In this document: positions 166 to 64,000 of the stretch, one piece after another | Numbering within the stretch: position 1 is the stretch's first letter | Layout of the letters: each line of letters opens with the position of its first letter | Source of the DNA: Tubulanus polymorphus | Lineage: Eukaryota > Animalia > Nemertea | Direction of reading: 5' to 3' | DNA: 64,000 nt | NCBI RefSeq assembly: GCF_964204645.1 | Contig: NC_134025.1 | Location: forward strand, 19,133,101-19,197,100 | The notes under the pieces: generated by a model | What the model saw: the letters and a program-made list of their open reading frames with translations, nothing else | Told to the model about the DNA's origin: nothing | Database searches by the model: none | Translations under genes and position numbers: made by a program

Positions 166-1042
166 ATCAGACAAAATCTACCCATCAAATAAATCACAGG
201 ATCAATCCCTATCTTAAGATCTAAAAATACTAAGATCATCAAACTTTCACCCAAATTCATTTGCAAAAATAGAAACCGTATACCCCTACCCTGGAAATTC
301 TCATTTCCCTCCAGTGTTCTTTCCATATTCGTATGTTTCTTTGGTTACCCTGTTATCATATATATTTTTGCAATTACCTATTCAACCTGCCCATAGGCCC
401 AATGGGTTATTTCTGCATTGAAAGGTTCTTTTTTGAACCTTTTATTAACAAAAAACAATAACTATCATAAAACTTTGGCGAGACCAGGTGGTTTGAATTT
501 GACTTTTTCGTAAGGTTTTCAAGCCTTTTTCGTCAATCCAAACACCAAACTTGAAATTGCTTATTGGCTTAACAACGAAGCCCATTAGACATTAACCTAG
601 GCCCTACAACCTTAAGAGAACGGCTCAAGTCCATTAAAGCATTAAATAGTTCCAGCAGAGTATCATGCGGTACTTAACACAGCCATACTTTATATATATT
701 TAGTCTGATTTTGGCTTATAATGTTATGTATTTAAAATAATGAAATGTCTTAATTTGTCATAGTTAATGTTATATCATAAACATATATTCCATATATTGT
801 ATCTATAAACTTAGTAACAGTTTGTGTCAAACATTTATTAGCACCTGCAATTACTATAATCCCACAGACCTGTGTTGCTAATTGGTGTCTGACACTCAAC
901 AATTTAAGAGTAGTTATTCTCATATTATATTAATGCCAACATGTCTAAACTGTGAGATACATGTCTAGCAAGTATTGTTTATTTAATAACTATGGCTAAT
1001 TAACTATCAAACTCATGTCTCAGCTAGTTCTCAGCAGATGGG

Positions 1043-1076
1043 TATAAATACCCATGGAATGGAACTGCAGTCATTC
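1043..1076 (+). promoter_or_regulatory. LTR core promoter: TATA box plus Inr, predicted TSS about 1073
   Basis: TATAAAT at 1043 and TCATTC (TCAKTY Inr) at 1071-1076, giving canonical -30 spacing. Confidence 0.75.
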
Positions 1077-1439
1077 TATTCTGCTGACAATATACTACAT
1101 GAACGAGACCTCTGAGTTGCTCTTTATTTAATTCAAGGTAAGCCATTTTTATGTCATGTGACCTGAACTCTGGAGATTGTATTAGAGGCATGTTTTGGAG
1201 AAATAATCATTTAATATATCTCTTCAAATGTGCTTTTGATGTATTATACAGAGTCAGATTTATTAGTGGTTAAATCTAGCTTTTGCTTGTAATAAAATAT
1301 CATATTTTAAGCGTCAAATACTATTGCTTTTATAAATATTAAAAATATGTAACTTGTAATTATTATAATATTCATTCTATTCTACTGACAATACACTACA
1401 TGAACGAGACCTCTGAGTTGCTCTTTATTTAATTCAAGG
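1071..1439 (+). repeat. 68-bp intra-LTR direct repeat (1071-1138 and 1372-1439) bracketing a predicted 301-nt intron (1138-1438)
   Basis: Copy 1 ends CAAG|GTAAGC; copy 2 ends pyrimidine-rich TTCAAG|GAC; same layout in the 3' LTR (11545-11612, 11846-11913). Confidence 0.85.
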
Positions 1440-1605
1440 ACTGAGAACTAAGGCTCGATGACCGGAAGAAATCCTACGAATCAGAATTATCGATAAACGC
1501 GAAGTTCCCCTGTTCCGTCAACACTTACGACGCAGGAACCTGTAGAAACAAGACTCAAGGGGCTGATAGTTTCAACCACCCGCACCAGACCAGCCTGATT
1601 GGGTG

Positions 1606-5051: not shown

Positions 5052-8000
5052 AAAAAAATTGTGAATGCATTGATAGATTCAGGTGCTCAAATTTGCTGTG
5101 TATCAAAGTATACTTTAGACAAGTGTAAATTATCTCATAAAATAGAGCCATCCAATTATACATCTATTGTAGGAGTTGGGGGTGAAACACACGAGGTTGT
5201 AGGAAAAATCAATTTGCCTATCACCTTTGGTGGATCTCTGACCCTCCATTTTGACTTCCACGTTTTTAAAGTGTTACACCACCCACTCATCATTGGATAG
5301 AATTTTATGGAAAAATTCAACGTTTCTTTTATAATGGAAAAGAAACTTTTGGCCATAGGTGACCGACATGTTCAGCATATTGATTCAAATATTGGGTTGT
5401 ACAAATCCACACGCGGCGTTGTTATCCCACCCCATTCTACTAGTTGTATTCCTTTATTTGTCAAAAACCTTAGTAAAAACACTGAGGTGTTATTATTAGA
5501 ACCAGTTCAAACTTTACACAAAAACAAACTTGCTGGTGCTCGTACGCTTACTAAGTGTTGCAACGGTAAAGTTTTCTTCAATGTTTTGAATCCCACTGAT
5601 CAGGCGATTTTTATACCACGTAACAAAGTTTTGGCTACAGTACATGCCGTTGAAGTTGATTCTGTATCCGAACTGTTAGATTCTGTTTCTAGGGAAGTTC
5701 CTAACGTCTCAGTTGCATCACCTCATACAACCCAAATTAACACAGATCAAATACCAGATATTAGTTTCAACATTGATTCTGAAGTATTAAACGATACTCA
5801 ACGTTCAGCACTGCATAGGTTGTTGATACATAATCGTGATGTATTCGCGACAGGCATCTCTGAATTAGGTTGTACTGATCTCTACAGTCATAAAATTGAC
5901 ACTGGTGATCGTCCACCGATTCGACACCAACCATACCGTTATTCAGTTCCTATGAAACAGGAAATTGAGGCAAAGGTCAAAGAGATGGTGGATAATGGTA
6001 TTGCAGTGCCAAGCACCTCAGAATGGGCTTCTCCAGTGGTCATGGTTAAAAAGAAGGATTCCAAGGAATGGCGTTTTGCCATTGACTATCGGGCTTTAAA
6101 TGCATGCACTAAACCGATTAACTTTCCGATGCCTCGAACTTAAGATGTCGTTGATGCAGTTGGCCAAAGCCAAGCAAAATTTTTCTCTATCTTGGATTTA
6201 TCTTCCGGGTTTTGGCAGATCCCTATGGACAAAAATTCGGAAGAACGTACTGGGTTTGTTACCCATGAGGGCCAATATCATTTCAAAAAAATGCCATTTG
6301 GTTTGATGAATGCACCTATGTCGTTCCAAATGGTTATGTCTAAGGCACTTCAAGGTGTGCATTGGAAATATGCACTCTGTTATGTTGATGACATATTGAT
6401 TTTCAGTCAATCATTTGAGGAACACTTGCTGCATCTTGATCAGGTTTTTAAACGTCTGCGGCAAGCTAAATTAACATTAAAACCATCTAAGTGCTATTTC
6501 GGAAGAGATAAAGTCACTTATCTCGGTCACATTTTCAGTCGGCATGGTCTGCAGGTAGATGATGCAAAGATATCAGTTGTTAAGTCATTTCCAATACCAA
6601 AATGTCAACGAGACGTTCGTTCATTTTTAGGATTGTGTAACTACTATAGGCGGTTCATTTTAGGCTATGCAAACATTGCAAACCCGCTCAATACTTTGCT
6701 CAGAGCAAACGTTGCCTTTCGCTGGACGGAAGATGCTCAAGACGCATTCGATAAATTAAAAAGTGCACTCACCTCGGCGCCGGTATTACGTTATCCGAAT
6801 CCGAAAGCCAGGTTTACATTAACTACCGATGCTTCAGATAGTAGTATTGGCATGATTTTAGGTCAGGTTGATGATGATGGTAATCATTACGTTGTCTGTT
6901 ATGGTGGTCGATCACTAGGTCCTTCTGAACAGAAATGGTCAATCGTAGAAAAAGAATGCTTGGCTATCATAGAGGGTGTTGAGAAATACGGAGAGTATTT
7001 ACGCTATACGGAGTTCGATATTTTCACTGACCATCAGCCGCTTACTTACCTTGACAAGAATAAGAACCATAATTCAAGATTGTGTAGATGGTCTTTACGT
7101 TTACAAGGTCTTCAGTATACAATCCATTATAAACCGGGAAAGAAAAATGCAGCGGCTGATGCCTTGTCCAGGCGACTGTACCCATTATGTCATCAAGATC
7201 ATGATGATACAGATTTGCCAACGGTTCTAAGTATCGGCACACCTGCATGCAATGAAGTAACCTTTCATTATGCAACTGATGCGCCTATACAGGTTTTACA
7301 GGTCCAACCTGTACCTTCCGAGGAGCAGTTGGCTAAAGCTCAAAGGGAATGTCTTGACTGTCAGGACATCATCAGTTATCTTAAAGAGCAAACAGTTCCC
7401 AAGGACCCTAGACGTGCTAAATATCTCGCAACAATTGAAAATGAATATTACGTACGTTCAAATGGTATACTGTGTCACTTATACTACCCTAGGTCCAATG
7501 CACGAAAACGCAATAAAACAGTTATTTACCAAGTGGTACTACCACGCTCAATGAGGCGTGACGTTATATTGTCGTATCATGATTGCAAAGCCGGTGGTGG
7601 CCACTTAGGAGTGGAACTTAAGAAAACCTATGAAGCAATTAAGGAGCAATATTTTTGGCCCAGGATGTATTCGGACCTGGAAGCGTACATCAACTCTTGT
7701 AAGAATTGTCAGGAAAACAAACAGAACATGCACAATAAGCCTCCATTAAATCCTCTGCCTATCGCAGACAAACTACATAGATGGCACATGGATATCATTG
7801 GTCTATTACCACAAACTACAGATGGCCACAAATACATTCTTTTAGTCGTGGAAAGTATGTCTAGGTGGATTGAAGCTTTTCCATTACAATCACAGGAGGC
7901 TCCAGAGATTGCCAAGGTCCTGTACTCACAGATCATTACGAGATGGGGTGCTCCGAGGCACATCGTTACCGATCGTGGGCCTAACTTCATTTCAAAGCTT

Positions 8001-9173: not shown

Positions 9174-11015
9174 GATTGGCAACCACAGCGATTGTTCTGT
9201 TCCTCCTGATGGCAACCGATCATATGATACAACAGGTACAGAATGAAGTAGAATCAATCTATAATATGGAAATGACTAGTTCACAAATGTATAATCTTCT
9301 GTTCACTACTCTAAGTAATTCACATCTTATCACGACATCTATAAATCAGTTTCATGAAGGTATTCGCCAATTGGTTTCTGGAAAGATTCCGCCGAGTCTA
9401 ATCTCACCGCATGTCTTGAAAGGGACTATAAATCATGTTCAAAAACTCGGACGTACACTATTATTTCTCGGAAGCTTCATTCTTTTACACTAGACGACGG
9501 GATAGCATTTTCTTAACTATTAAGTTGCCTCTTTCATACTTTCGGTACCCTTTACAATTATTTCAAATTCAAACATTTCCCGTGCCTATCAACAGCACGT
9601 CGAATTACGGCACTAAATTAGTAAGCCATGCTGATTACCTGCCGCTTTCGAATGATAACTCTTATTATGCCCTCTTAACTACAAGTGAACTACTTTCTTG
9701 TGAAGCCACCAGTAGTAAGGTGTGTCACACTAGTGTTCCTGTTAAGCCGGCCACAGCAGGATCTTGTGAATATGCTGTATTCGCAGACGATAAAATCATG
9801 GTGGAAAAGTTGTGCAATTTCAACGTTTTACCCAATGCCATTTCTTCAAATATTCAGCCATTAGAATCACCCGCCATATTAATTACACGAGTATCGCATA
9901 TCAATCTACTATGTAAAAACAAGAAAAAGCACATTATTGGATGTGACTTCTGTGAATTAAGGGTGCCTTGTGGGTGCGCCGTTACCACGGAACGTCTGGT
10001 CATTCCACCGCGTATATCAAGTTGCAATGGTTCCTCGACCGAACCACAGATACTTCACCCCGTCAATTTAGCGTTGATACAAGAATTTTTTACAACCGGT
10101 ACTCATTCAACAATATTTGGTGGAACCACCTTTTCGAAACCCATAGATATGAAGTTACCAAACCTTAACATCTTCAATCATCGATTTTCTCATATTCTTG
10201 GTACAGATGACAAAATCGCTATGAATTTGAAAGTATTGGCTAATGCAACTCGCCATGACCAATCGGTGTATCATTCACTGACTGAAGGCCTGCTGGACGG
10301 TGCTATTGCATTGCCGGCTCCATGGCCCACGTCATTAAGTGATATCATTGGATTGGCAGCGCTTCTGTTGTCCAGTGTTGTTTCCATTGTTTTATTCATT
10401 ACTTGCAAAAAGCTACGCACGATCACTGTTACACTCAACACCCTAGAAAGAGTACATTCGGTTAGGGCAGCAATACTACCTAAGTTCATTTACGACAATA
10501 TTGCCACCCCACCACCGACGACGACTCCCATTAATTACTTAGCTATAAGCTCTTTGGAAATATTATTATATACCACCATCCTTTTACAGGTTGTCATATT
10601 ACTGTATTGCTTTTTCAAAAAAGCATTACGTCGTGGAAATGAGACTCGTATTCTTTTGGAGGTTACATGTGGCTCTCATTGTGTTATAGTGCCACTTATG
10701 ACACTATCTATGTGTCCGTCGCATTGGCACATCATACCACCCTTAAGGATATCAAATCTACAGATTATGGGGTGTTGGATGCCTGAATTACATATTGATA
10801 TTGCTGACATGTCGGTTATAAGTCGTTACAATAATAAGGCTATGGTCATACCTAAATATTTTAAACTATCTATATATCAAGCGTTCATATTAAAGAAAAT
10901 ATTGCGTCACCCGTTTGCCACGAATGTGATTATCGAGCACCATAAACGTGTAACTCCATTGATTACTGCACCACAGATGGACCATCCTCCATCATACCCA
11001 GGCCTACCTGCCTAG
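9174..11015 (+). pseudogene. env: env-like glycoprotein (baculovirus F/errantivirus-like), frameshifted near 9440 and probably internally deleted
   Basis: Signal-like LATTAIVLFLLMA, GKIPPSLISP motif, Cys-rich ectodomain with N-glycosylation sequons, two TM segments, long C-terminal domain ending PPSY. Confidence 0.8.
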
Positions 11016-11132: not shown

Positions 11133-11921
11133 AGTATCATGCGGTACTTTACACAGCCATACTTTATATATATTTAGTCTGATTTTGGCTTATAATGTTA
11201 TGTATTTAAAATAATGAAATGTCTTAATTTGTCATAGTTAATGTTATATCATAAACATATATTCCATATATTGTATCTATAAACTTAGTAACAGTTTGTG
11301 TCAAACATTAATTAGCACCTGCAATTACTATAATCCCACAGACCTGTGTTGCTAATTGGTGTCTGACACTCAACAATTTAAGAGTAGTTATTCTCATATT
11401 ATATTAATGCCAACATGTCTAAACTGTGAGATACATGTCTAGCAAGTATTGTTTATTTAATAACTATGGCTAATTAACTATCAAACTCATGTCTCAGCTA
11501 GTTCTCAGCAGATGGGTATAAATACCCATGGAATGGAACTGCAGTCATTCTATTCTGCTGACAATATACTACATGAACGAGACCTCTGAGTTGCTCTTTA
11601 TTTAATTCAAGGTAAGCCATTTTTATGTCATGTGACCTGAACTCTGGAGATTGTATTAGAGGCATGTTTTGGAGAAATAATCATTTAATATATCTCTTCA
11701 AATGTGCTTTTGATGTATTATACAGAGTCAGATTTATTAGTGGTTAAATCTAGCTTTTGCTTGTAATAAAATATCATATTTTAAGCGTCAAATACTATTG
11801 CTTTTATAAATATTAAAAATATGTAACTTGTAATTATTATAATATTCATTCTATTCTGCTGACAATATACTACATGAACGAGACCTCTGAGTTGCTCTTT
11901 ATTTAATTCAAGGACTGAGAA
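11133..11921 (+). repeat. 3' LTR of element 1
   Basis: Near-identical to 659-1447. Confidence 0.93.
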
Positions 11922-24205: not shown

Positions 24206-24299
24206 TGTGGCGGCGAGTACTTCGAATTAATATTATGCGCGACGCGGACTTTGATCTTGACCAGCTTGTGGCGCCACCGTGCTTCAATTCAGGGGATCC

Positions 24300-27200
24300 G
24301 GGTCATTCACTGAATACATCCGTGATGAGCGGATGTGTGTAATAAACAATTTAATAATAATCGAGTAGTTATTATTGGTTTCATTTCCATTTGTTTATTA
24401 TCGCAGGTGGGTGATTTTAATATCTTTATAGCGCCTCTAGTAGGTAGCTGGTTGGAATCGGTGTTTAATGGGTTGTTGTAATAATTCTCAGTTGAAATGG
24501 CTGGGGTTGATAAGGATATCCGATGCCGGAAGTGTTTTGAGTTTTGGCGCCCGGAAGTAATTAGGGTTTCTGCTGCCTTCGCAGAAACCCTATTGTATTC
24601 CTGCTGATTATTATTATTATTAGGGTTTCTGCTGCCTTCACAGAAACCCTATTGTATTCCTGCTGATTATTATTATTATTATTATTATATTCTTTTTCAC
24701 ACTGGATCTTACTGAAAGGATATAAACAACTGCAACTTACTTTCACTGTCGGTGAAACCATTCTGTATCACAAGTACTACGCTGCATTGACAAATACTGT
24801 ATATAATATTAATCAGAATGCCACTGTTTACTCACTGCGAGCCTCTAAAACATCGATATTCTAAATTCTATAAAAATTGATACACATGTACCTGGTTACA
24901 AAACGAAACGAACCCCTTATATGATTAGTTCCCATTTTAACCACTAGGGGGCGTAAATTTTGAAAAATCGATTTCAGCATCCATTTTTCGCATTTTATGC
25001 GGTCTGTTTATTATGAAAATCACAAAACTTGGTATAAGGACAAAGACATGTGTGTAATATGCCATCCTGCATGATTAGTTCATACAACTGCCACTAGTGG
25101 AATGTGAAAACAACGATTTTTGCTCCTAGGTCCTTAACCGTTGGTGATAGAATCGAGGTTGCAATGTGTGGTTAGTAGCCCTTTTCAAGATACTTGTATT
25201 TATGTATGGTTTAAGTAGGTAACTTATATGGTTCTCCAGGAGCGCCACCTACATTTTGCTGGAAATGCATTTTCATTGATAGCTACTAAGCGGATAAAGG
25301 GTCTCTATGAAAATTGATATACATGTACCTTGATATAAGATACAACGAATCCCTAACATAATTAGTTCCTATTCTAACCACTAGGGGCGTTTATGTTGAA
25401 AACTCATTCTAGCATCAGTTTTTTCGATTGTAATTCAGTAGTATGCTAACCGGCAAATTACCGGCCACTTGAACATGGTAAAAGTACCGTATCTTCGTTA
25501 TTCACGGTGTCATATCCCCTAACCTTGGTACATTAGAACTTTTCGCGTAGTATCCCATGTGAATCAACATAGCCATGTTATCAGCTGACCCCTAGGTGGC
25601 GCTCCTCATCCAGCAAGGCAGAAACCTGTTATCGCTGCTTTGCAGCTATATTTATTATTATATTCTTTTTCACACTGGCTCTTACTGAAAGGATATAAAC
25701 AACTGCAACTTACTTTCACTGTCGGTGAAACCATTATGTATCACAAGTACTATGCTGCATTGACAAATACTGTACGTGATATTAATCAGAATTGCACTGT
25801 TTACTCACTGTGAGCCTCTAAACATCGAAATTTAAGCCCGATTCAAACAGTATCCATCTACGTATGTGTTTTGCCTACGTGTCATTCCCACAGTGCGTCA
25901 GTGCGTCTGTTTGTGTCAGTGTCCCTATAAGCAGTGATAGAGCTGGTGTACTAGATCTGTAGTTTTTTAGTATCTTTATATATATGTGGCGCACTGAATG
26001 GGGTCAGTCTCGAGTGAACGCAACTGAGGAATTTTTGTGCCACATATACAAGCAATAGCATCCTTGCAGTAACTTCCCTGGATAGAGCTAATGAATGCAG
26101 CCACGGTATCTATACGCGAGAGCCTGGATGACTATATTCTTCTGCTATCATTACAATATTCCTTGACGGATTTACTTGAAACTTTCGTGAGATGTACGGA
26201 ACACAGGTACCTTGAGGTAAGTCGAAAGGATCTTTTATTTGGGACCCAGTTCACCCACCAGGGCGTGTTATACATTTGAAAATTATGACATCGAAAAGTA
26301 ACTGTGTAAGAAAAATTTTTGTATTTGACTTTTCAGCTTCGGGCGAGCACGAAAGTTGTTCATAACAGCCCGGAGGTTAAAAAAGTCAATGGCACGCCCT
26401 ATCTACGATTAACCGTTTGGGCTCTACGAGCACGAAAATGGGCCCCCAAATTTTGTAATAGATTTTTGCTCCTAGCTCCTTAACCATTGGAGATAGAATC
26501 GTGGTTGCAACGAATGATCAGTAGCCCTTGCGAAGACGCTTTTATTGATGTATGGTATAACTATGTAACTCATATGGTTCTCCAGTAGCGCCACCTATAA
26601 GACGCTGGAATACGCATTCATCTATATCGACTAGGGGTACTAATGGATTTCTATAAAAATTGATACACATGTATCTGGTTACTAAATGAAACGAACCCCT
26701 TATATGATTAGTTCCCATTTTAACCACTAGGGGGCGTAAATTTTGAAAAATCGATTTCAGAATCCATTTTTCGCATTTAATGCGGTCAGTTTATTATGAA
26801 AATCACAAAACTTGGTATACAAAGACATGTGTAATATGCCATCCTGCATAATTAGTTCATACAACTGCCACCAGGGGACCTAGAAAACAATGATTTTTGC
26901 TCCTAGGTCCTTAACCGTTAGCGATAGAATCGAGGTTGCAATGTGCGCGTAGTAGCCCTTGTGGGTCAACATATCCATGTCATAAGTTGACCCCTAGGTG
27001 GCGCTCCTTTAAAAAGAGGAACATTATGAACTGCTTTCGATGAAATGTTTGCACGCACCCTTGTACGACATTGTATCCAGCAAGGCAGAAACCCGTTATC
27101 GCTGCTTTGCAGCTATATTTACATATTTTAATCTCAGTCTATATTTGATAATGTTATGAATTGGGTTATGTATAAGTATTTCTATATGTCACGAGCTAAA

Positions 27201-28401
27201 TTTTGTTAACTCTCCTAGTTGTATTCAGCCGTGTTCATATAAGCTTTAGTGTACATTTAACTACTCATGCAGGGTCTTTTGTCGTTTCGTTGACGAAGCA
27301 GTGTAGCGACGAATGCGTGCCGTCCTTCGACGTGGGCAAACTATAGTTTCTTTGTGGTCGTTGTAATGCTATCGACGACCTATCATATCGTTGCATTCCA
27401 TATTGTGGTAAGTCTATATACGACCTGGTGACCATTTCTCGTGGTCAGAAATTATTTGCAAGCCCGTGAAGCACGGACAGGCTACAGCTGTTCAGAGATG
27501 TTTGCCGCGTGTGATGGGGTAAGGAAAAATTATTTGTATAAACCAGTAGTATTATTGCTAGTAATGTTAATTAGTTCAATTTAGGTAGAATAATTAGCGG
27601 ATTTGGTAATTATTTCATGTTTTCAAATACTATTTTGGCTAATTGTCGTAATTTGTCATTTGGTCATTCGATTCGAATATTTCAAATACTTGTCTCTATT
27701 AAACAAGGCGTTTATAGATGTATGAATTCCTGTTTCACCTTATCATATGTTTGTGATCATATGTATATTTGAATTGTAAATGTTCGTTATGTGTGTATTT
27801 GCAGCTCCTTCTTCTTGCTGTTGTTAGTATCAATAGTATATTCTAATCATTAATACTCATATCACTACATCCGACTCGACTGAGATTCGTCAGCAATCAG
27901 CAATCAGCTATTAACCGAACTGACCCGGATGACTATCGTCACCGTAAACGCCGTCATATACGGACGTCGCCTAATCATCAGAATAACTTTTCTCAAGTTG
28001 ACGGATATCTCCGCTGATCCATAAACGACCATCTTCAATGTGACCACTGCCTTCAATCAGATTCAAATTGTAGTATTTCTATATTATTTTTTTTTTCCGT
28101 TTTTTTTTTTGTGTTAATTAAACTATTTGTAATTATATTTAAGAGTTATCTCAGTAATTCGGTTTTCTTTTTCTGAGGAGTCACTCTCGGTCACGTGTAC
28201 CTCGTGACACTATATCAGTGATCATTAATGAGTAATAAGTATTTGACAAGTATTTCTATATCAGTAATCAATTAATGCAGATTTATATATTGATGGGTCA
28301 TTCACTGAATACATCCGTGAAGAGCGGATGTGTGTAATAAACAATTTAATAATAATCGAGTAGTTATTATTGGTTTCCTTTCCATTTGTTTATTATCGCA
28401 G
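24300..28401 (+). repeat. 107-bp intra-LTR direct repeat (24300-24406 and 28295-28401) bracketing a predicted intron (24407-28401)
   Basis: Starts GGGTCATTC (Inr) and contains AATAAA; copy 1 ends GCAG|GTGGGT, copy 2 ends pyrimidine-rich TATCGCAG|ATC. Confidence 0.85.
24561..27120 (-). mobile_element. Tandem HINE/DINE-1-like elements (family C)
   Basis: Duplicated terminal hairpin AGGGTTTCTG...CAGAAACCCT, (ATT)n microsatellite, internal repeats, and the other end GCAGAAACC.GTTATCGCTGCTTTGCAGCTATATTT at about 25650 and 27120. Confidence 0.8.
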
Positions 28402-28538
28402 ATCGGTTGGCCAGGAGGATCGAGCAGGATCGGTCGGTGAGGTGTCCGACGCAGTGAAGTGGGTGAGTCGTTCTGTAACCCTCATCAGTAGGATCGTTTC
28501 CGGCGTAAGTGCAGCAGCTGTAAAAGCGGCGGCCACAT

Positions 28539-28556
28539 TGGCACCCTCGCTGGGAT
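28539..28556 (+). other. Primer binding site of element 2 (inverted copy at 35380-35397)
   Basis: TGGCACCCTCGCTGGGAT one base after the LTR-terminal CA; cognate tRNA not identified. Confidence 0.75.
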
Positions 28557-28614
28557 AATTGGTATTCGCCGATTGAAATTTGTCCGGCTAGCCTCGGAGG
28601 CTCTGGATGGTAAT

Positions 28615-28902
28615 TTATTCACTGCGACCGACCGGTGTTTATTCACTGCGACCGACCGGTGTTTATTCACTGCGACCAACCGGTGTTTATTCGTTGTGAC
28701 CGACCGGTGTTTATTCGTTGTGACCGACCGGTGTTTATTCGTTGTGACCGACCGGTGTTTATTCGTTGTGATCGACCGGTGGTTATTCGTAGTGATCGAT
28801 CGGTGGTTATTCGTAGTGATCGATCGGTGGTTATTCGTATCGATCGATTGGTATCTATTTGTGGTGAACGACCGCTATTTATTCGTTGTGTTCGACCGGA
28901 AT
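28615..28902 (+). repeat. 24-bp tandem repeat (12 units) in the retrotransposon leader
   Basis: Unit TTATTCGTTGTGACCGACCGGTGT with a gradient of divergence. Confidence 0.9.
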
Positions 28903-29787
28903 TGTTTCGCTCGGAGTGAACGCTGATCGTTTGCGGTAGAGTTCGTGGTGAGAACCAGCCTGGCGAGAATTAGCGCGGTGGTCAGGGATCCATGGTGGTG
29001 AAATAGGAAGAACCTAGGTGAAGAAAAGTTTGGCGAATCGTTAAACTACTGGTAAGCTTCGATAAGTAGTAGTAGAGATAATTGATCGTAATTAACAACT
29101 AAGTTGTGTTGTCTTGTGTGCGTCTACTTGTTTGGTGTGGTGGACATTTTGCTTTATGTTGCGGAGTAAGAGACTCTATTATTATATTTATTTAATTTAT
29201 GGCGTTTTGATTTTTTGCTGCAAGGATTGCGCAATTTATGCTTTATTTTCTGCTTGCTTTAATTTTGCATGATTTATGATTTATGTTGAAACTGCTTATA
29301 TTTGTGTGTTTTATGTGCATGAAGGGAAAAAAATCCTGATAGTGGTTTCGTTCAGTTGTAGCTGTAGATTCTGCTTAATTTTTCTGCATGATTCCAATGT
29401 GAAACATTATGTTCGATTTTTGTTTTGATTTGGCATGTTAGATTTCTTAAAAGATTGAATATTTATTTTGCTTGAAAAGGTGAAAGTATATGTACACGTG
29501 GTTTGAGGATTTCACTTTGTCGAAAAAAAATGTTTGGATTTCTCAGAATAGTAGCTCAAAATGTTTGTTGACTTAGTGTACTCCTGTATTTGTGTTTAGC
29601 TTGGTAAGTGCTTAGATCTGTCATTGTATGTATTGAGGTAGGTTTTATGTTAATCCAACTCAACTGTAAGCCATTTACTGAGAGGGGTATAGGTCAAACA
29701 TAGGTGATTAAGAATTAATACAAACCTGCGATACTGTATATTCTATAATAATTGCTATTACGTGTCGTAATACGTATTACGTGTCGT

Positions 29788-32724
29788 GTACGATCAGAAT
29801 GTAATCGAGCCGGTGCCCCATAACGAAGAATTACCTCATTAAAGATGACACGGGCAGTGGTCCGAGCAGTTTCATTCTTGGTGGGCACTGCAATTGCAAA
29901 TTTGGTGAAATGGTCCGTCATGACCAATACTTTCTCGTATCCCTGCGATTTCTCCAACGTCAGGTAATCTATACACAATACCTCCAAAGGGTAGGACGTC
30001 TGAATATTCTTTAAAGGTGCCAGTTGCCGCTTTGGAAAGAACACATCATTTGCATCCCTTCAAATAATTCTCCACGTCCATACGCATCCCCGGCCAATAG
30101 CATTTTTGTGACAACAGGGCTAATGTTCGGTCCCTGCCTGGATGACCTAGCTCATCGTGAAGGTTCTGCAGAACCCAACCAATCTGCGACTGCGGTAACC
30201 ATAACCTCAATTCCGTCCCTCCATCCCCTGGAACTTCTCTATAAAGTAAACCTTCGCGTACCTCCAAGGATTTAAAAATACGGCTCACAACATACTCTGA
30301 CGGTTTCCTGCGGCGAAATTTTCTCTTGGATACAAAACAATCAACGATCCGCCTGATAATAGGATCCTCATTTTGCAATGATTTTATATCCACAGCTGCC
30401 ATGCCGCTGGATGTCCATTCCGGTGTACGATCGGCATTCCTGCATATCGCAGAAAGCACCTCAGCTGCCATACGATTCAGAGGGCTCCGTGACAGCACAT
30501 CCGCATCCCCCATTCTACATCCGCTTTGATATTCCAGTTCGATATCATAAACCGAAAGCGCTTGTAACCAGCGATGCCCTGTGGCATCAAGCTTGGCCGA
30601 CTTTAGTACGTACGTTAATGGGTTCGAGTCAGTTTTTACCAAACATTTTCCGCCGTAGAGGTAGTCATGAAACTTCTCGGTTACTGCCCATTTCATGGCG
30701 AGAAATTCTAACTTGTGAGCCGGATATTTCCTCTCTGAAGGACTTAACCCGCGACTGGCATCAGTATCACACGCCGTGTTCCATCAGCATCAGTTTGATA
30801 CAGCACTGCGCCCAGACCCGATTGTGCTGCGTCGGTGTGGAGCTCGAACGGCTGTGAAAAGTTCGCAAAACCCAACACCGGAGCCGATGTTAACACTTCT
30901 TTCAACCTAGTGAACGACGTTTCCTCTCGTTCACCCCACTCAATAACTGCATTCCGTTCAACCATTTTCCTCTTTCCCTTCTTGTTAGTTATTCCGGAGA
31001 GAAGTTTCGTATGAGGGGCGGCAATACTAGCGTAGCCCTTGATGAATCGTCGATAATATCCGGAGAAGCCCAAAAATCTTCGAACATCCGCCACAGTTTG
31101 AGGAACACACCAATCCTTGACGGCCGACAGCTTTGAAGGATCAGGTTCAATACCTTTTTCGGACACCTTGTGACCCAGATATATCACGGACGATCTCAAA
31201 AACTCACACTTAGAAGGCTTTAGTTTTAATCCAGCTTCCCTCAAACGATCAAACACCTCCCCAAACGCTCGAGATGTTCCTCAAATGTCGCCGAAAATAT
31301 CAAGATATCATCTATGAACACAATACAATCTCACAAATTCATATCCACTAAAACTCGCTCCATGAGCCTTTGAAAAGTGGAGGGAGCATTTGTCAATCCA
31401 AAAGGCATTCGATTAAACTCCCAAAACCCGAAACCAGGTCCAACATTAAACGCTGTTTTGCCCTTATCCCTCTCACTCATCTCCACCTGCCAGTATCCCG
31501 ATTTTAGATCCAGACTAGTAAAATACTTTGCCCCTGCAACACTAATAACTCGTCTGCTCGAGGCAATGTCTGACGATCTTTAACTGTACGACGATTAAGA
31601 GTCCGGTAATCAACGCAAAATCTCAAGCCACCATCCTTCTTTCTCACAAGGACCACCGGAGACGAGAATGGCGAAAACGAAGGCCTTGTAACACCTGCCG
31701 ATGCCATCATGTTCAGATGATCCCGAACCTCTTGAATCATTGACGGTGGAACCCGTCGATACCGCTCTTTAAATGGAACATTATCGGTTAAATTAATTTC
31801 ATGCTGAATCATAGATGTGCAACCCATATCCGTATCTGAAAAAGAAAACGCTGCCCGTTGTTTCCGCAATGTATCCTTCAATCTAAGGACCTGCTCGGGA
31901 GTAGTGTCACTTTCATCCCACTTAAACAGTTCCAAGAATTTGTCATCCTCCCCTGATCGAATTAATTTAGTCTGCTGTTTTAGTGGGGTTACAGGATCCT
32001 TCATCGCCGGATTCACCTGGTCAACCGCTTCAACCGCGCATATAACAGCCCTAGAGGGAATCGTAACCGGTCGGCAGCCAACATTTCGCACACATACACT
32101 GATCCTATTACATCGGACAGTTACGACCTTGGACAATGTTGGTACTAGCATCAGCGTTCCTGGCAAACTAACTGCTTCTGTTGTGCAAGTCATTGCCATC
32201 CTCGAATCTCGAGGCAGATCCCGAACTATTCCACGGATCGACACTTGACACATCGGAGGAACAGTAACCGTCCCCGTTGTCCTAACGTCCTCCGGTTGTC
32301 TATGTAGGAAGTCTTTTACCATTCCAACCGGTCCATCAGTCGTCCTCAATAACTGCAAAACGTTGGTTCCAATCACGACCGGTACCCTTTTACTATATTC
32401 TGTATCCTCCACGACTAAAACCAAGGCAACCACAGTGTGACCATCCACTGTCATCTTGACCTCAGCACATCCATAATACGGCAAATCTCCTCCACATGCC
32501 GTTTTCACATCAAGGAAATCCTGGACAGGAAAAACTGCAGTATCTGAAAGAGAAATGAAGAAACTGGATGAAACAGTGGTTACTTGAGCACCGGTATCAA
32601 TCAAGGCCGATGTTTTTACATTATTAATTACAATTTCCGCTTCATTAGCTGGACCTACAATCGATGACCTGTCTGACCCAAGGCCCCTGGACCAGACCCC
32701 GACAGGTTTCCCGACCTCAGACAA
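29788..32724 (-). pseudogene. pol: Gypsy pol (PR-RT-RH-IN), frameshifted and truncated inside the integrase
   Basis: LIDTGAQ, FCVDYR, FIDD, HTDA, LHDELGHPG, CIDY and RLHSD motifs; ends abruptly after HSD. Confidence 0.92.
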
Positions 32725-34142
32725 TTCCGCTTGTAATGGTCAAGTCCACCACACTCAAAACAGCCCCGAACTCGATTATGGGGAAAAGGTCCACGACTCG
32801 TATCCTGCCGGCCACGTCGAGCACCACCTCGAGCGAATCCTCGTCCCCGCGGCGTTGGTTGCTCTGGAAACGGACGATTTGGCAATTCCGAAAACTTCCG
32901 TGCATTCTTTAGGTCCAGCACGTCCTTCTTGAGTTCCTTCACCGTCTCCAACAGAGCATCCACTGACTTCTTCAAATCATTATCTCCACCGGCATAAATC
33001 TGTTGTTGCTGGGGTTTTGACGACCTGGAATCTGTTTTTCCTTGGCTGCTCGATTTAGCAAAATCCCCAGTTACCAGACCCAGCTCTTGCTCCAACTTAC
33101 GGGCTTCAATCATTATACTCCGATAGGAATGAATTAATAACAAAGGCCGCAACCCGAGTTTCAATTGACCGTCCCTGAGGCCTTGCCAAAATTGGGTCTT
33201 CAGCTCCTCTTCGTTGAGTTTCCCAGGAGCATGACCGCGTATTTCCTCCAACCTACATGCCCATATATTAACAGTTTCATCTCTCAGTTGGACAGCAGTA
33301 TAGAACTTAGAAAGTACCTGTCCCAGGGTTAAAATCTCCCCAAATAATGTATCCAACCTCTCGAGTACAACTTTCACACTCAGATTCTCTCCCCATTCAC
33401 TCTACATTTGAAAGACAATCTCGAGCGACTCCTTTAAGGGATTTGCAAAGTAAATTCAAAGTTTGCATTTCTGAATGGGCTCCATCAGATTTAAGGCCCA
33501 TTACTTCACTCCGCCATTGACGATAGGGAACATCCGTTCGGTTTATCTCACCCGAAAAGGTACTTAACCGGGGATTTGGTGTTACTACTACGTTTGAATT
33601 GGATACATTGCGCCGCGCCAAGTTATTTTCGGGTGCCTGAAAAGACAGACTCGGCTGAAGTTCCCGTTTAAGGTTTAGTTTTGCTCGATTTTCCGTTTTG
33701 CCGTACATCGCGTAGGTATGAGGCGTATCAAAGGGCAACCTACCTAAATTTACAGACCCACGCGGTCCACTCGGTGGCCCGGGGGTATCGGCGATATCGG
33801 TTAACCGGTTAACCGGTTAACCGCTGCAAAAACGATGCACGCATACCAGTTTGCATTGCCTCCTTCAATACCTGCTTCCGCGATCATTTGTTCACAGTTC
33901 ACTATATGATCATCGCGGATAACCTCAACACGAAGATCTCTCCATTAAATTCAACTATAGCTGCACAAGCCCTTGAAAAAGCTTCAGTTTCAAAGTAAAA
34001 CTATGAGAGCCGTGTCCCCTTCCAAGCGCACCGTATCAATTTGACCAAATCGTTCAAATTCATGTTTGATCACCGCTGTGGTCAAACCCGATGCATTCTC
34101 AAACTTAGCCGAAATAACGCGACCAGCCAGTGACGACGCCAT
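32655..34142 (-). pseudogene. gag: PNMA/Ma-like Gag, frameshifted
   Basis: ATG at 34142 in GTCATGG context; PRLSTFSG...YRQWR, SLKGVA, ETVNIWACRLE and CCHC CFECGGLDHYKRNC. Confidence 0.85.
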
Positions 34143-34143
34143 G

Positions 34144-37100
34144 ACGACACGTAATAGCAATTATTATAGAATATACAGTATCGCAGGTTTGTATTAATTC
34201 TTAATCACCTATGTTTGACCTATACCCCTCTCAGTAAATGGCTTACAGTTGAGTTGGATTAACATAAAACCTACCTCAATACATACAATGACAGATCTAA
34301 GCACTTACCAAGCTAAACACAAATACAGGAGTACACTAAGTCAACAAACATTTTGAGCTACTATTCTGAGAAATCCAAACATTTTTTTTTGACAAAGTGA
34401 AATCCTCAAACCACGTGTACATATACTTTCACCTTTTCAAGCAAAATAAATATTCAATCTTTTAAGAAATCTAACATGCCAAATCAAAACAAAAATCGAA
34501 CATAATGTTTCACATTGGAATCATGCAGAAAAATTAAGCAGAATCTACAGCTACAACTGAACGAAACCACTATCAGGATTTTTTTCCCTTCATGCACATA
34601 AAACACACAAATATAAGCAGTTTCAACATAAATCATAAATCATGCAAAATTAAAGCAAGCAGAAAATAAAGCATAAATTGCGCAATCCTTGCAGCAAAAA
34701 ATCAAAACGCCATAAATTAAATAAATATGATAATAGAGTCTCTTACTCCGCAACATAAAGCAAAATGTCCACCACACCAAACAAGTAGACGCACACAAGA
34801 CAACACAACTTAGTTGTTAATTACGATCAATTATCTCTACTACTACTTATCGAAGCTTACCAGTAGTTTAACGATTCGCCAAACTTTTCTTCACCTAGGT
34901 TCTTCCTATTTCACCACCATGGATCCCTGACCACCGCGCTAATTCTCGCCAGGCTGGTTCTCACCACGAACTCTACCGCAAACGATCAGCGTTCACTCCG
35001 AGCGAAACAATTCCAGTCGAACACAACGAATAAATAGCGGTCGTTCACCACAAATAGATACCAATCGATCGATACGAATAACCACCGATCGATCACTACG
35101 AATAACCACCGATCGATCAATACGAATAACCACCGATCGATCACTACGAATAACCACCGGTCGGTCACAACGAATAAACACCGGTCGGTCACAACGAATA
35201 AACACCGGTCGGTCACAACGAATAAACACCGGTCGGTCACAACGAATAAACACCGGTCGGTCGCAGTGAATAAACACCGGTCGGTCGCAGTGAATAAACA
35301 CCGGTCGGTCGCAGTGAATAAATTACCATCCAGAGCCTCCGAGGCTAGCCGGACAAATTTCAATCGGCGAATACCAATTATCCCAGCGAGGGTGCCAATG
35401 TGGCCGCCGCTTTTACAGCTGCTGCACTTACGCCGGAAACGATCCTACTGATGAGGGTTACAGAACGACTCACCCACTTCACTGCGTCGGACACCTCACC
35501 GACCGATCCTGCTCGATCCTCCTGGCCAACCGATCTGCGATAATAAACAAATGGAAAGGAAACCAATGATAACTACTCGATTATTATTAAATTGTTTATT
35601 ACACACATCCGCTCTTCACGGATGTATTCAGTGAATTACCCATCAATATATAAATCTGCATTAATTGATTACTGATATAGAAATACTTGTCAAATACTTA
35701 TTACTCATTAATGATCACTGATATAGTGTCACGAGGTACACGTGACCGAGAGTGACTCCTCAGAAAAAGAAAACCGAATTACTGAGATAACTCTTAAATA
35801 TAATTACAAATAGTTTAATTAACACCAAAAAAAAAACGGAAAAAAAAAAATAAAATAGAAATACTACAATTTGAATCTGATTGAAGGCAGTGGTCACATT
35901 GAAGATGGTCGTTTATGGATCAGCGGAGATATCCGTCTACTTGAGAAAAGTTATTCTGATGATTAGGCGACGTCCGTATATGACGGCGTTTACGGTGACG
36001 ATAGTCATCCGGGTCAGTTCGGTTAATAGCTGATTGCTGACGAATCTCAGTCGAGTCGGATGTAGTGATATGAGTATTAATGATTAGAATATAGAATATA
36101 CTATTGATACTAACAACAGCAAGAAGAAGGAGCTGCAAATATACACATAACGAACATTTACAATTCAAATATACATATGATCACAAACATATGATAAGGT
36201 GAAACAGGAATTCATACATCTATAAATGCCTTGTTTAATAGAGACAAGTATTTGAAATATTCGAATCGAATGACCAAATGACAAATTACGACAATTAGCC
36301 AAAATAGTATTTGAAAACATGAAATAATTACCAAATCCGCTAATTATTCTACCTAAATTGAACTAATTAACATTACTAGCAATAATACTACTGGTTTATA
36401 CAAATAATTTTTCCTTACCCCATCACACGCGGCAAACATCTCTGAACAGCTGTAGCCTGTCCGTGCTTCACGGGCTTGCAAATAATTTCTGACCACGAGA
36501 AATGGTCACCAGGTCGTATATAGACTTACCACAATATGGAATGCAACGATATGATAGGTCGTCGATAGCATTACAACGACCACAAAGAAACTATAGTTTG
36601 CCCACGTCGAAGGACGGCACGCATTCGTCACTACACTGCTTCGTCAACGAAACGACAAAAGACCCTGCATGAGTAGTTAAATGTACACTAAAGCTTATAT
36701 GAACACGGCTGAATACAACTAGGAGAGTTAACAAAATTTAGCTCGTGACATATAGAAATACTTATACATAACCCAATTCATAACATTAACAAATATAGAC
36801 TGAGATTAAAATATGTAAATATAGCTGCAAAGCAGCGATAACGGGTTTCTGCCTTGCTGGATACAATGTCGTACAAGGGTGCGTGCAAACATTTCATCGA
36901 AAGCAGTTCATAATGTTCCTCTTTTTAAAGGAGCGCCACCTAGGGGTCAACTTATGACATGGATATGTTGACCCACAAGGGCTACTACGCGCACATTGCA
37001 ACCTCGATTCTATCGCTAACGGTTAAGGACCTAGGAGCAAAAATCATTGTTTTCAAGGTCCCCGGGTGGCAGTTGTATGAACTAATTATGCAGGATGGCA

Positions 37101-37386
37101 TATTACACATGTCTTTGTACTTATACCAAGTTTTGTGATTTTCATAATAAACTGACCGCATTAAATGCGAAAAATGGATTCTGAAATCGATTTTTCAAAA
37201 TTTACGCCCCCTAGTGGTTAAAATGGGAACTAATCATATAAGGGGTTCGTTTCGTTTAGTAACCAGGTACATGTGTATCAATTTTTATAGAAATCCATTA
37301 GTACCCCTAGTCGATATAGATGAATGCGTATTCCAGCGTCTTATAGGTGGCGCTACTGGAGAACCATATGAGTTACATAGTTATAC
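34144..37386 (-). repeat. Right arm of the inverted duplication (leader, PBS, partial LTR 35399-36816, partial HINE C)
   Basis: Reverse complement of 26555-29768. Confidence 0.95.
35010..35321 (-). repeat. 24-bp tandem repeat (13 units)
   Basis: Inverted copy of 28615-28902 with one extra unit. Confidence 0.9.
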
Positions 37387-41240: not shown

Positions 41241-41334
41241 TGTGGTGGCTGATGAGGGCCATGCGTAAAAAAAACCACGTATATGCAAATGAGGGCGACA
41301 TTATGACAAAACGACAAAACAAAAATAACGCGAC

Positions 41335-42266
41335 AAAGCAATAATTTTGGTTTTGTCGCCCGCGACAATTCATAATTTTGGTTTTATCGCCCGCGACAAT
41401 TGCTTTTTTTGGTTTTGTTGCACACGACAATTCATTATTTTGGTTTTATCGCCCGCGACAATTTTTTTTTTGTCGCCGTTTTATCGCCTGCGACAATTCA
41501 ATATTTTGGTTTTATCGCCAGCGACAATTCATTATTTTGGTTTAATCGCCCGCGACAATACATTATTTTGGTTTTATCGCCCGCGACAATTCAATATTTT
41601 GGTTTTGTCGCCCGCGAAAATTCCAGATTTTGGTTTTATCGCCCGCGACAATTCATTTTTTTGGTTTTGTCGCCCGCAACAATTCAATATTTTGGTTTTA
41701 TCGCCAGCGACAATTGATTATTTTGGTTTTGTCGCCCGCAACAATTCATTATTTTGGTTTTATCGCCCGCGACAATTCATTATTTTGGTTTTATCGCCCG
41801 CGACAATTCATTATTTTGGTTTTATCGCCCGCGACAATTCATTAATTTGGTTTTGTCACCTGCGACAAATAGATATTTTGGTTTTGTCGCCCACGACAAT
41901 TCAATATTTTGGTTTTATCGCCCGCGACAATTCATTAGTTTGGTTTTGTCGCCCGCGACAATTCAATATTTTGGTTTTGTCCCACGCAACAATTCAATAT
42001 TTTGGTTTTATCGCCTGGGACAATTTAATATTTTGGTTTTAACGCCAGCGACAATTCATTATTTTGGTTTTATCGCCAGCGACAATTCATTATTTTGGTT
42101 TTATCGCCCGCGACAATTCATTATATTGGTTTTGTCGCCCGCGACAATTCAATATTTTTGTTTTGTCGCCCGCGACAATTCAAGATTTTGGTTTAATCGC
42201 CCGCGACAATTGATAATTTTGGTTTTATCGCCCGCGACAATTAATTTTTTTGGTTTTGTCGCCCAC
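41335..42266. repeat. 31-bp minisatellite, about 30 units
   Basis: Unit TTTTGGTTTTATCGCCCGCGACAATTCATTA. Confidence 0.95.
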
Positions 42267-51599: not shown

Positions 51600-52319
51600 T
51601 TTATAGAATTATATAAATAGAATGTAAATCCATGAACAAGCAGTTGAGTTTGAGACGAGTCTTGGAGCCTGAAATATCTTGCAGGCAAATTCCCTATATT
51701 TGTTATTGTCGCATGGGCCGCGAGCGGGGGACTTGGTATCCGCCTCCGTCCGTCCGTCAGTCAAAATGAGCTTGTGAAAATTCTCGTGATTAGACCAAAA
51801 AATGATACCTTGTTTCTCATTCCCCGACTGGGTCTGATAAATTAACAGTAAAAATTGTAACCAGAGGCCCATGGGCCTGAAGCATTGGTAGATTAAACTG
51901 CGGTAAGGTATTAATTGGTTAATGCTTCACATCTGCCACAAATGTTCTATGACGATGTTGACTGGGAGGACCACAGACCTAAGAATTGAATGAATTTCAT
52001 TTTACTGTCGAACTATTCAGCCTACGCTATTTTATTGTTAAACCTCATTAATGCAATTTTGTTATAGACAAAACTAGTTTATTCTGATGTTTTCCATGAT
52101 GTCCTAGCCAAGAGATTTATATCAATCAAAATTTGTATACAAAAACCCATTTAATACAACAATTTCGGCACTTTCCCCTACACAAGATTCGCATTCAACG
52201 TACAACCTTGCAGCAATCATTTGAAATGATTATTCCAAGGTACAACTGTAAGGGTAATCTCAACTGACTGTGGTTTTTCTTGCATGAACTGTTAGGCCCT
52301 ATTGCTGAATGATGAGAAC

Positions 52320-53184
52320 AACTAGGGGTCCAGGGACACCATGCCCACTTGGGAGGTGGTTTCAAATGCTCAACAATCTAACATTTTCAATATTCAAACA
52401 AATTTCCAATACATTGTGCTAACACAATATGCTTAGGTATCAATATAATGTGGAAAAACTTTTTCCCACCTACGAATGAGTACTGATGACGCCAATATGG
52501 CTGCCAATTGCGCCATAATTGGCTGATCAAAAATACATGTCAATACAGGTCATAGGTCGGCCATCTTGAGTCCGATCGACCCAATTTTTCTTATGTTGAT
52601 GGGCCCTTGGGAGGTACAAATATACACAAACAATCAAGGTTATTGATAAAAGTGTCTTCAAAATTTCCCTCGAAAACTTCGAAAATGTGTAAAAAGTGCT
52701 GATATTGGCAAACAACAATGGCTGCCAGTCGGCCATCTTGAATCTGATAGGGCCAGTTTTTGGCCTGAAGATGTGTCTAGGGTAGATACATGTATAAACC
52801 AAATATCAAGACATTACCTTGAAGCGTCTTCAAAACTTCCAATAACTGGATTCCGTCTACGGACGAACGGACAAACGGACGGACGGACGAAAAGTGAACG
52901 CAATAGCCCGCTGGGACTAAAGTCCCAAGTGGGCTAAAAACGTGTAAAAAGTGCTGATTTTGGCAAACAACAATGGCTGCTAGTCGGCCATCTTGATTCT
53001 GACAGGGCCAGCTTTTGGGCTGAAGATGTGTCTAGGGTAGATACATGTGTAACCAAAATATCAAGACATTACATTGAAACGCCTTCAAAACTTCCCAAAA
53101 TAACTGGATTCCGTCTACGGACGGACGACAGACGAAAAGTGAATGCAATAGCCCACTGGGACTAAGGTCCCAAGTGGGCTAAAA
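52320..53184 (+). mobile_element. Pearl/HINE family A, deleted copy plus tandem partial 3' copy
   Basis: ACTAGGGGTCCAGGGACACC start, subTIR GCCCACTTGGGA/TCCCAAGTGGGC, (GACG)n, hairpin GGGACTAAAGTCCC. Confidence 0.85.
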
Positions 53185-54006
53185 CCTACAGTAGCGGCAA
53201 ATAAGCATCGCGATATTGCAATTTACGACAAACGTGTAAATTTAATCACTGTTGTGGTGTTCAACGCATGGAAAAGATAATAGGAGTTATTTTTCCGTAG
53301 TTTACCGTTTGATTTTTCGTGTCATCATGAAATGGTTTTAACTTTAGTAAAGGCGTTCCTGCGCGATCAACTCCAAGACATAACTTACCTATACGGGTTT
53401 CAGTCATGAGTAGGCCAACTGTTCCACTGCTCCAGAAATATGTATTCTGCCGCTGAGAATTAATCCCAATTAATCTCATTGCTTCTGATAGGAGGAATAA
53501 CAGTGATATTTAAAGACTATGATATTTATATACCAGGGTTACATAAATTTATGTTTTTCTATTCAAAAGAGGCCATCCCCCATTCTTCACTGCCAATGTC
53601 GATGCGGACATATCACTACGCAATTGCTTAACCCCCTCTGATCTACCACATAACTAACGAGAAAAATGCGATAGAATAACTTTTTGGGCCAATTAATCAG
53701 AAATCCAGCAACGCTATCTTGTAGGGAATAATTGAAACATTATTTTGAGTCATTTTCAGCTGTGTCTAATGTTTTACGAGAACAGAGTTACAATTTGAAG
53801 TTACTATGAAAATGAGAAGAGTCGGCGCTTTATTACTACGACTTTTGATCCATTTTACTAGCATTGGCATGACGTCATCGACGTCAACCAATGCTAAAAA
53901 TAAAATGCTGCCGGCCAGGCTTAAGAGTTAACACCTTTTTCTTTTTATGATGAAAATAAAAACCGGCCGGGCAGGTCAATACAAGTAGTATATGGTAACG
54001 ACTTAA

Positions 54007-55212
54007 AACTAGAGGTCCAGGGACACCATGCCCACTTGGGAAGTGGTTCCAAATGCTCAACAATCTAACAATTTCAATATTCAACGCCCCCTGGTGACCA
54101 TATACAGAATCCAATGAACTTGAAACTCACCACAATCATAGAACATGTCAGCAGCTACGATTTTGTAATTGATTGTGATAACAAAATATGCCTCGTTACC
54201 ACTTTAATATGGAAATACTAAAGTATTCTACTATTCAACGCCCCCTGGTGACCATATTCAAAACCCAATGACCTTGAAACTCACCACAATCATAGAACAT
54301 GTCACGAACTATAACTTTGTAATTGATCATGGTAACAAAATATGCCTAGGTACCGATATAATAAGGAAATACTAAGACTAAGTTATTCTACTATTCAACA
54401 CCCCCTGGTGACCATATAGAATAACTAATGGCCTTAAAACTTGCCACAATCATAGATGATGTCATGAGCTACAACTTTGCAATTGATTGTGGTTACAAAA
54501 TATGCATTGATACGAATATAATATAGAAATACTAAGATATTGCATTATTCAACGCCCCCTGGTGGCCATATACAAAAACCAATGGCCTTGAAACTCACCA
54601 CAATCTACAACTTTCTAAATGATTGTGGTAACAAAATACGCTTAGGTATCAATATAATGTCATAATTGGCTGATGAAAATTACCTGTCTCAGGTATAAAA
54701 AATCCCTTTCCAAAGAATACCCATCACAAATTGCAATGAGAAATGATAAACCAGTAGGAAGCTACAGGACTCAGAATTTGGGCCAAAATTAACATTTTTG
54801 GGCACTAAAAAGGTCATAGGACGGCCATCTTGAGTCCGATCGACCCAATTTGTGTTATGCTGATGGGCCCTGGGGGAATTCATATATATCCGAAAGATCA
54901 AGGTAATTGATCAAAGCGTCTTCAAAATTTCCCTCAAAAAGTTCAAAAATGTGTAAAAAGTGCTGATTTTGGCTAACAACAATGGCTGCCAGTCGGCCAT
55001 CTTGAATCTGACAGGGCCAGTTTTTGGGCTGAAGATGTGTCTAGGGTAGATACATATGTAACCTAAATATCAAGACATTACCTTGAAGCGTCTTCAGAAC
55101 TTCCCAAAATAACTGGATTCCGTCTACTGACGGACGGACGGACGCACGGACGGACGACGGACGAAAAGTGAACGCAATAGCACGCTGGGACTAAAGTCCC
55201 AAGTGGGCTAAA
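54007..55212 (+). mobile_element. Pearl/HINE family A copy
   Basis: subTIRs, about 4 core repeats of about 155 bp, (GACG)n, 3' hairpin. Confidence 0.9.
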
Positions 55213-63839: not shown

Positions 63840-64000
63840 CGATAATCTGTTAATCCAATGTATATAGTATATATAAAATAACAAGGGGGCTAACGACGCT
63901 CACAAACTACCCAACTTCAGTCGCTTACTATTTCGTTATTTCTCATCCGATTTTGATAATCCAGGCATGATATGAAAGCTAAGTGGTATAAGCCCATCCG

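Follow-up and report, generated by a model that had tools for sequence, protein, structure and literature searches.

Identical long terminal repeats (LTRs) must start RNA at one end of a retroelement and stop it at the other, and reverse transcription is expected to erase introns; how, then, could an LTR keep an intron in both of its copies? This question is raised by a stretch of 64,000 nucleotides from the nemertean Tubulanus polymorphus (NC_134025.1, positions 19,133,101 to 19,197,100 of the forward strand; here called the window), in which two elements, designated element 1 and element 2, bear LTRs with an internal direct repeat. The subject is element 2, a Ty3/Gypsy (Metaviridae) element according to its domain order and LTR ends, in which a first-pass annotation had seen a repeat running from an initiator to a splice donor. 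With a probability of roughly 0.68, the first copy of this repeat, R1, is a spliced first exon, the second copy, R2, is rewritten from R1 at each reverse transcription and both LTRs thereby retain the predicted intron, with splicing and RNA ends deduced from sequence. The underlying design, U3-R1-AT-rich segment-R2-U5, is real and recurrent, being common to ten related families. In element 2 its parts are the following, a slash marking the repeat boundary here and below.

24206 to 28537, plus strand: element 2 LTR, 4332 bp with nested repeats and 1774 bp net, with TG...CA ends and a host-repeat insertion point at the left end
24206 to 24299, plus strand: U3, 94 bp, without TATA box
24300 to 24406, plus strand: R1, predicted first exon, starting C/GGG-TCATTC, with AATAAA at 24341-24346 and ending with a T-rich tract and CAG
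24407 to 24412, plus strand: predicted 5' splice site GTGGGT, 7/9 to consensus including the preceding CAG
24407 to 28401, plus strand: predicted intron including R2, 1437 bp net
24561 to 27118, no strand assigned: nested high-copy non-coding repeats, later insertions recognized by an empty-site joint, high read depth and internal repeats
28295 to 28401, plus strand: R2, second copy, with AATAAA at 28336-28341, a predicted RNA 3' end inside and an end that is the predicted acceptor
28402 to 28537, plus strand: U5, 136 bp, with two more donor-like sites at 28463 (GTGAGT) and 28505 (GTAAGT)
28538 to 28556, plus strand: primer-binding-site-like stretch starting with TTGG
28538 to 29771, plus strand: leader, with a 24-bp tandem array at about 28590-28900

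The LTR begins with TGTGGCGGC and ends with GCGGCCACA, an inverted match at 8 of 9 positions, and is directly followed by TTGG; a tRNA gene was not found in the 64-kb window. Its left end is fixed by contigs of run X1, in which the host repeat, empty of the element, runs on behind 24205, and the end of U3 carries about 12 extra bases in some copies of the family. R1 and R2 are identical at 105 of 107 positions, with mismatches at 24326 and 24383, and this identity breaks off abruptly at both ends, R1 continuing as CAG/GTGGGT and R2 as CAG/ATCGGT. In both copies AATAAA starts 66 nt upstream of the repeat end. A joint from 24560 to 27119, the empty site of the nested repeats, is present in all four runs, so that the intervening part plus R2 amounts to 1437 bp net and the LTR to 1774 bp net. 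All structural claims of the first-pass annotation thus hold, namely the 107-bp repeat with its coordinates and boundary sequences, the AATAAA inside both copies, the TG...CA ends with a primer-binding-site-like stretch, the approximately 95 bp upstream of the predicted transcription start and the net distance of about 1.4 kb between donor and predicted acceptor. The donor-like sites at 28463 and 28505 in U5 are strong and possibly serve for splicing into the leader.

For identifying further LTRs of this kind, 28 Pol relatives were aligned, and 97 loci were compared with themselves. Of these, 80 were the best among 425 relatives from metagenomes, and the other 17 (L081-L097) came from bacterial genome bins. 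The occurrence of Gypsy Pol in the latter probably reflects contamination with host DNA. At a threshold of at least 40 nt and at least 90% identity, 38 repeat pairs were obtained in 22 of the 97 loci, 8 of them being assembly end-overlaps, 3 LTR-to-LTR matches, 10 located inside an LTR and 17 elsewhere. The LTR-internal pairs belong to L013, L018, L021, L022, L024, L065, L069, L081, L082 and L086, from eight data sets. Several of the 11 LTRs proposed by an automatic caller were false; LTR ends were subsequently read by hand (polypurine tract or flank plus TG on the left, CA plus TGG on the right); the left end of the L086 LTR could not be fixed and the L022 LTR is split over contig ends. Of the 97 contigs, the majority lack the length to show an LTR clearly; among the 22 LTRs read whole, 10 carry the repeat. 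L071, which has R1 and a donor but R2 for no more than 17 nt, is not counted. At the LTR ends, relatives of element 2 show a polypurine tract plus TG and CA plus a primer-binding site, and L084 has both LTRs. Just upstream of the polypurine tract, a GGGAC motif recurs across the clade 25-30 nt before the LTR TG (L013 at 7208, L021 at 6219, L022 at 8367). Scanning viral contigs with the relatives' alignment and with the element 1 Pol gave no matches, and the lineage of element 1 thus lies outside the survey.

Together with the two window elements, the ten relatives make up 12 cases, in which the repeat is 61-107 nt long (61-104 nt in the relatives) and U5 10-171 nt; the intervening segment of the relatives measures 109-381 nt at 24-39% GC. 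All ten LTR-internal pairs read AG/GT after copy 1 and AG/non-GT after copy 2, compared to 1 of the 17 pairs found elsewhere (L001). Across the 12 cases, copy 1 is always followed by GT plus purine and in 11 CAG precedes the donor, the background of AG/GTR being 0.18% per position. At the other end of the repeat, 8 of the 12 cases have the A of the initiator-type motif BBCABW at 0-5 nt from the repeat start (background 6.1%), and a pyrimidine/purine step marks the repeat start in 9 of 11 first copies versus 2 of 11 second copies. In five cases the repeat begins exactly at the A of CA, the C being absent from copy 2, as would be expected if an RNA 5' end had been copied. In 5 of 11 cases R2 is directly preceded by a G, a possible trace of cap copying that, being too weak, was not used. 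Moreover, the 20 nt upstream of the donor contain 11-15 pyrimidines versus 7-12 at the first donor-like site of eight repeat-less LTRs (p 3e-4, with a crude control), as expected if the exon end were to double as an acceptor. In an ordinary LTR with a passive duplicate, RNA synthesis would begin at R2, or at R1 with no splicing and hence a single long R, and R1 would be an accidental copy drifting along with U3; this reading leaves unexplained both the AG/GT end of 10 out of 10 LTR-internal pairs and the initiator-like repeat starts with a -1 base absent from copy 2, and appears unlikely.

On the reading of R1 as a spliced first exon, the first nucleotide of R1 would be the transcription start. 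In the 5' part of the RNA, R1 would be spliced to U5 via the AG ending R2, so that R2 is removed together with its poly(A) site; the poly(A) site of R1 would be silenced by U1 bound to the neighbouring donor. In the 3' LTR, the RNA would be cleaved inside R2 ahead of the acceptor and so remain unspliced, leaving the intron in place, and the T-rich tract would have two roles, that of a downstream poly(A) element and that of a pyrimidine tract. Minus-strand strong-stop DNA consisting of U5 and R1 would then jump onto R2 at the 3' end, rebuilding U3-R1-intron-R-U5 and overwriting R2 with R1. In a daughter, R1 would descend from the parental 3' LTR and R2 from the parental 5' R1. Start at R2 with end in R1 would lose the intervening segment, and with start and end at R2, or with unspliced RNA, the copies would drift; among the schemes considered, only the proposed one explains start, end and identity together. 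Its least supported step is the differing behaviour of identical LTRs, for which a cap-proximal advantage of the 5' donor can be offered as a guess. Hiding of the donor by U3, as in foamy viruses, is not supported, as its accessibility, by folding prediction only, fell with U3 in 5 of 12 cases (p 0.26).

Renewal of R2 from R1 predicts that the two copies change together. Identity between R1 and R2 is 100% in seven of the ten relatives and 95.6-98.7% in the other three. L013 and L021 are sisters (support 100/98) with coding DNA about 67% identical, and their R segments, which begin and stop at corresponding points, are homologous (z 6.8) although no more than 59% alike, whereas R1 equals R2 at 100% within each. 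Concerted evolution of the repeat is thus shown for sister families, and it is likewise left unexplained by a passive duplicate. The claim that the two occurrences in the window point to a general strategy rather than to a chance duplication is in this way supported by ten further families from eight data sets with the same boundaries and concerted evolution. Gene conversion or DNA slippage might also homogenize the copies of a real intron-bearing LTR without strand transfer, and a spacing of merely 109-381 nt in the relatives would favour this. In addition, L057, the sister of L069, has a single homologous R running straight into U5 without intervening part (6022-6373, 128-195), as recombination between copies would yield; such a loss of the intron is possible either by recombination or by splicing of the 3' LTR. 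Conversion, however, gives no reason for a repeat to begin at the RNA start and to stop at the donor, and the least uniform pairs include decayed copies, making this route improbable.

The distribution of carriers bears on a further alternative. On a 21-row tree, carriers need six changes, and a single carrier clade is rejected (p-AU 2e-6); 13 loci, including L086, L071 and L080, were left out of the trees for short alignments, element 1 was not among the rows, and L035 and L040 with partial LTRs were omitted from the carrier test. Donor-like and acceptor-like sites are frequent in repeat-less LTRs as well, and 4 of 8 such LTRs have an acceptor 17-32 nt upstream of the last AATAAA. Examples with AT-rich stretches are L002 (6937-7569), L015 (7735-9359), L023 (3142-4892) and L084 (270-866). 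Judging from these signals, such LTRs possibly hold plain introns inside R, in L084 kept in both LTRs. A recurrent one-off by-product, in which spliced strong-stop DNA is misjoined at the intron end of an LTR with an intron in R and the copies are young rather than renewed, would fit these repeat-less LTRs, the scattered carriers and the presence of AATAAA after R2 in L022 and L065. However, an old acceptor AG is found just before R2 in only 1 of 11 cases (L021), the pyrimidine tract ahead of the donor implies that the exon end has been selected to serve as acceptor, and L013, L021 and L081 form a supported clade consisting entirely of carriers. This by-product is accordingly regarded as quite unlikely.

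Several observations weigh against R1 as a renewed first exon, some of them general. The LTRs of L001, L002, L005, L015, L023, L057, L066, L080, L083, L084, L090 and L093, 12 of the 22 read whole, are without repeat, which is therefore dispensable. The motif windows were picked after data inspection, and families within one data set are non-independent. R contains a canonical AATAAA in no more than 6 of the 12 cases and U5 in two (one also among the six), while five have it in neither; in L065 it occurs only after the acceptor, and in element 1 there is one about 80 nt upstream of R2, within the intervening segment.

Other such points come from the family of element 2 itself. In a contig of run X2 that covers both copies and U5, with a shortened segment between R1 and R2, R1 departs from the window at 24326, 24335 and 24353 and agrees with it at 24383. 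The R2-U5 piece of this contig has only two other letters in 306; hence, R1 and R2 differ here at at least two of four sites, probably at three or four. Among X5 DNA reads on R1, the variant letters at 24326, 24335 and 24353 appear in 19/23, 23/27 and 13/28, the R2 letters in raw DNA reads being unphased. Furthermore, R2 of element 2 keeps the full initiator TCATTC and could itself start transcription, its donor GTGGGT is predicted to be 14% unpaired, the lowest value of the 12 in the folding prediction, and a joint from 24297 to 28295, which may represent an LTR that lacks the intervening part or else a wrongly assigned R1, is present in two contigs and six DNA reads. The mismatch between R1 and R2 fits overwriting by strand transfer only if the copies descend from an old parent with drifted LTRs, which is allowed because the two copies of a daughter come from different LTRs. 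The simpler account is a passive R1, and the retained TCATTC, the differences at shared sites and the weak donor, predicted to be paired, all speak for it; even if the design once worked, R1 may now be a passive duplicate in this lineage. The lineage of element 2 may thus have lost the coupling of R1 and R2, and the chance that it still ran the mechanism in its last cycles is put at even. The interpretation given in the first-pass annotation is partly supported: its generality extends well beyond the window, whereas element 2, on which it had been built, turns out to be the weakest example, with a single LTR, a donor predicted to be mostly paired and an R1 differing from R2 in its family.

Splicing had been proposed to be read out at the R1-U5 junction, which differs from unspliced R2-U5 at two bases only and so makes a weak test. 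A joint from 24406 to 28402 was not among the 15 joints listed from contigs and DNA reads (150 further joints exist). Among the runs listed as carrying the sequence none was of RNA, which does not bear on expression. Depth drops ahead of R1 in X2 and X3, where one contig also continues without a break beyond R1 to the intervening part; as runs X1-X3 are contigs of unknown kind, which cannot show a start or an absence, these data were not used.

Beyond its LTR, element 2 is a decayed and rearranged Gypsy copy, in which the segment 24206-28537 is a 5' LTR without partner, U3 and R1 each occurring once in the window, and the 3' part of the element is missing from the window. Two further regions belong to it.

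29772 to 34140, minus strand: inverted internal region with gag region, protease, reverse transcriptase, RNase H and an integrase fragment in several frames
34141 to 37386, minus strand: inverted duplicate of 26555-29771 with 24 differences, including a third R copy at 35535-35641

Pfam matches follow the order protease, reverse transcriptase, RNase H and integrase on the minus strand (34140 to 29772) in five reading-frame pieces, with integrase cut short, while no Pfam family was matched by the two frames of the gag region. The presence of rve and integrase zinc-finger matches does not agree with a split-direct-repeat tyrosine-recombinase element (Ngaro/PAT). Named protein matches belong to bivalves, a hemichordate, fish and frogs. 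Being part of the duplicate, the third R copy does not count as an independent one. The junction of the 3.2-kb inverted duplication (29759-29790) shows a 12-bp templated repeat resembling end-joining repair, and an assembly artefact is rejected for the inverted arms on the basis of this repeat and the 24 differences between them. Elsewhere in the window, a 31-bp tandem array (41329-42266) and an element cluster with 154-bp internal repeats (52300-64000) were noticed.

The neighbouring element 1 has two LTRs.

659 to 1449, plus strand: 5' LTR of element 1, of the same design, with a TATA box 30 nt upstream of the initiator A, R1 at 1071-1137 followed by GTAAGC, R2 at 1372-1438 and a U5 of about 11 bp
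11133 to 11921, plus strand: 3' LTR of element 1, with four differences from the 5' LTR and identical R1 and R2

Two of the four differences (1384 and 1394) lie inside R2 of the 5' LTR. The LTRs end in AGT...ACT without a following TGG, and a third long frame of 527 aa (9432-11015) after pol has no Pfam match. That the two LTR types show no evident similarity and that the Gag types differ, as had been noted, was confirmed: between the LTRs only chance-level matches were obtained, the longest of 29 nt, the gag of element 1 matches Retrotrans_gag whereas that of element 2 has no Pfam match, and the RNase H-integrase stretches share 24% identity.

Taken together, we consider it somewhat better than an even chance that animal Gypsy elements harbour a widespread, undescribed LTR design, in which a self-acceptor first exon would be copied over its second copy at each minus-strand transfer while the intron is kept and the 5' poly(A) site is spliced out, and which would have been gained or lost repeatedly from relatives with plain introns in R. 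If true, this is a further answer to the identical-LTR problem and would solve intron erasure and the start and stop of RNA together. The predicted inheritance rule, R1 from the 3' LTR and R2 from the 5' R1, is testable in existing genome assemblies. With 10 carriers among 22 and several others being intron-like, LTR introns may be common in this clade and missed by annotation, and LTR dating and read mapping would be affected because the spliced 5' end resembles unspliced R2-U5.

A description of the design was not found in a literature search outside subscription journals and Repbase/Dfam entries. Analogies exist in other retroelement classes: the perfect non-terminal repeats of Drosophila TART are kept identical by template jump, the split direct repeats of Ngaro, PAT and TOC1 represent a rearranged terminal redundancy, and in Penelope elements an intron survives reverse transcription; none of these is known to use an exon whose own end is an acceptor inside an LTR. 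Element 2 shares with a standard Ty3/Gypsy element the TG...CA ends, the primer-binding-site-like stretch and the order protease-reverse transcriptase-RNase H-integrase. In contrast to the standard U3-R-U5 arrangement, R is present twice per LTR and flanks an AT-rich segment with splice signals, and the terminal redundancy, which serves minus-strand transfer in Ty3/Gypsy (PMC10886601), would here derive from R1 at the 5' end and from R2 at the 3' end. As far as the consulted part of PMC3694450 goes, the donor of HIV-1 lies outside the LTR, a duplicated R or an LTR-internal acceptor does not appear for foamy viruses, and in these the donor, hidden by RNA structure in the 3' LTR, is upstream of the poly(A) signal, whereas in element 2 AATAAA is 66 nt upstream of the donor. 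On the same source, foamy viruses are nevertheless alike in having donor and poly(A) signal in both LTRs, where they are read differently at the two ends (PMC3694450).

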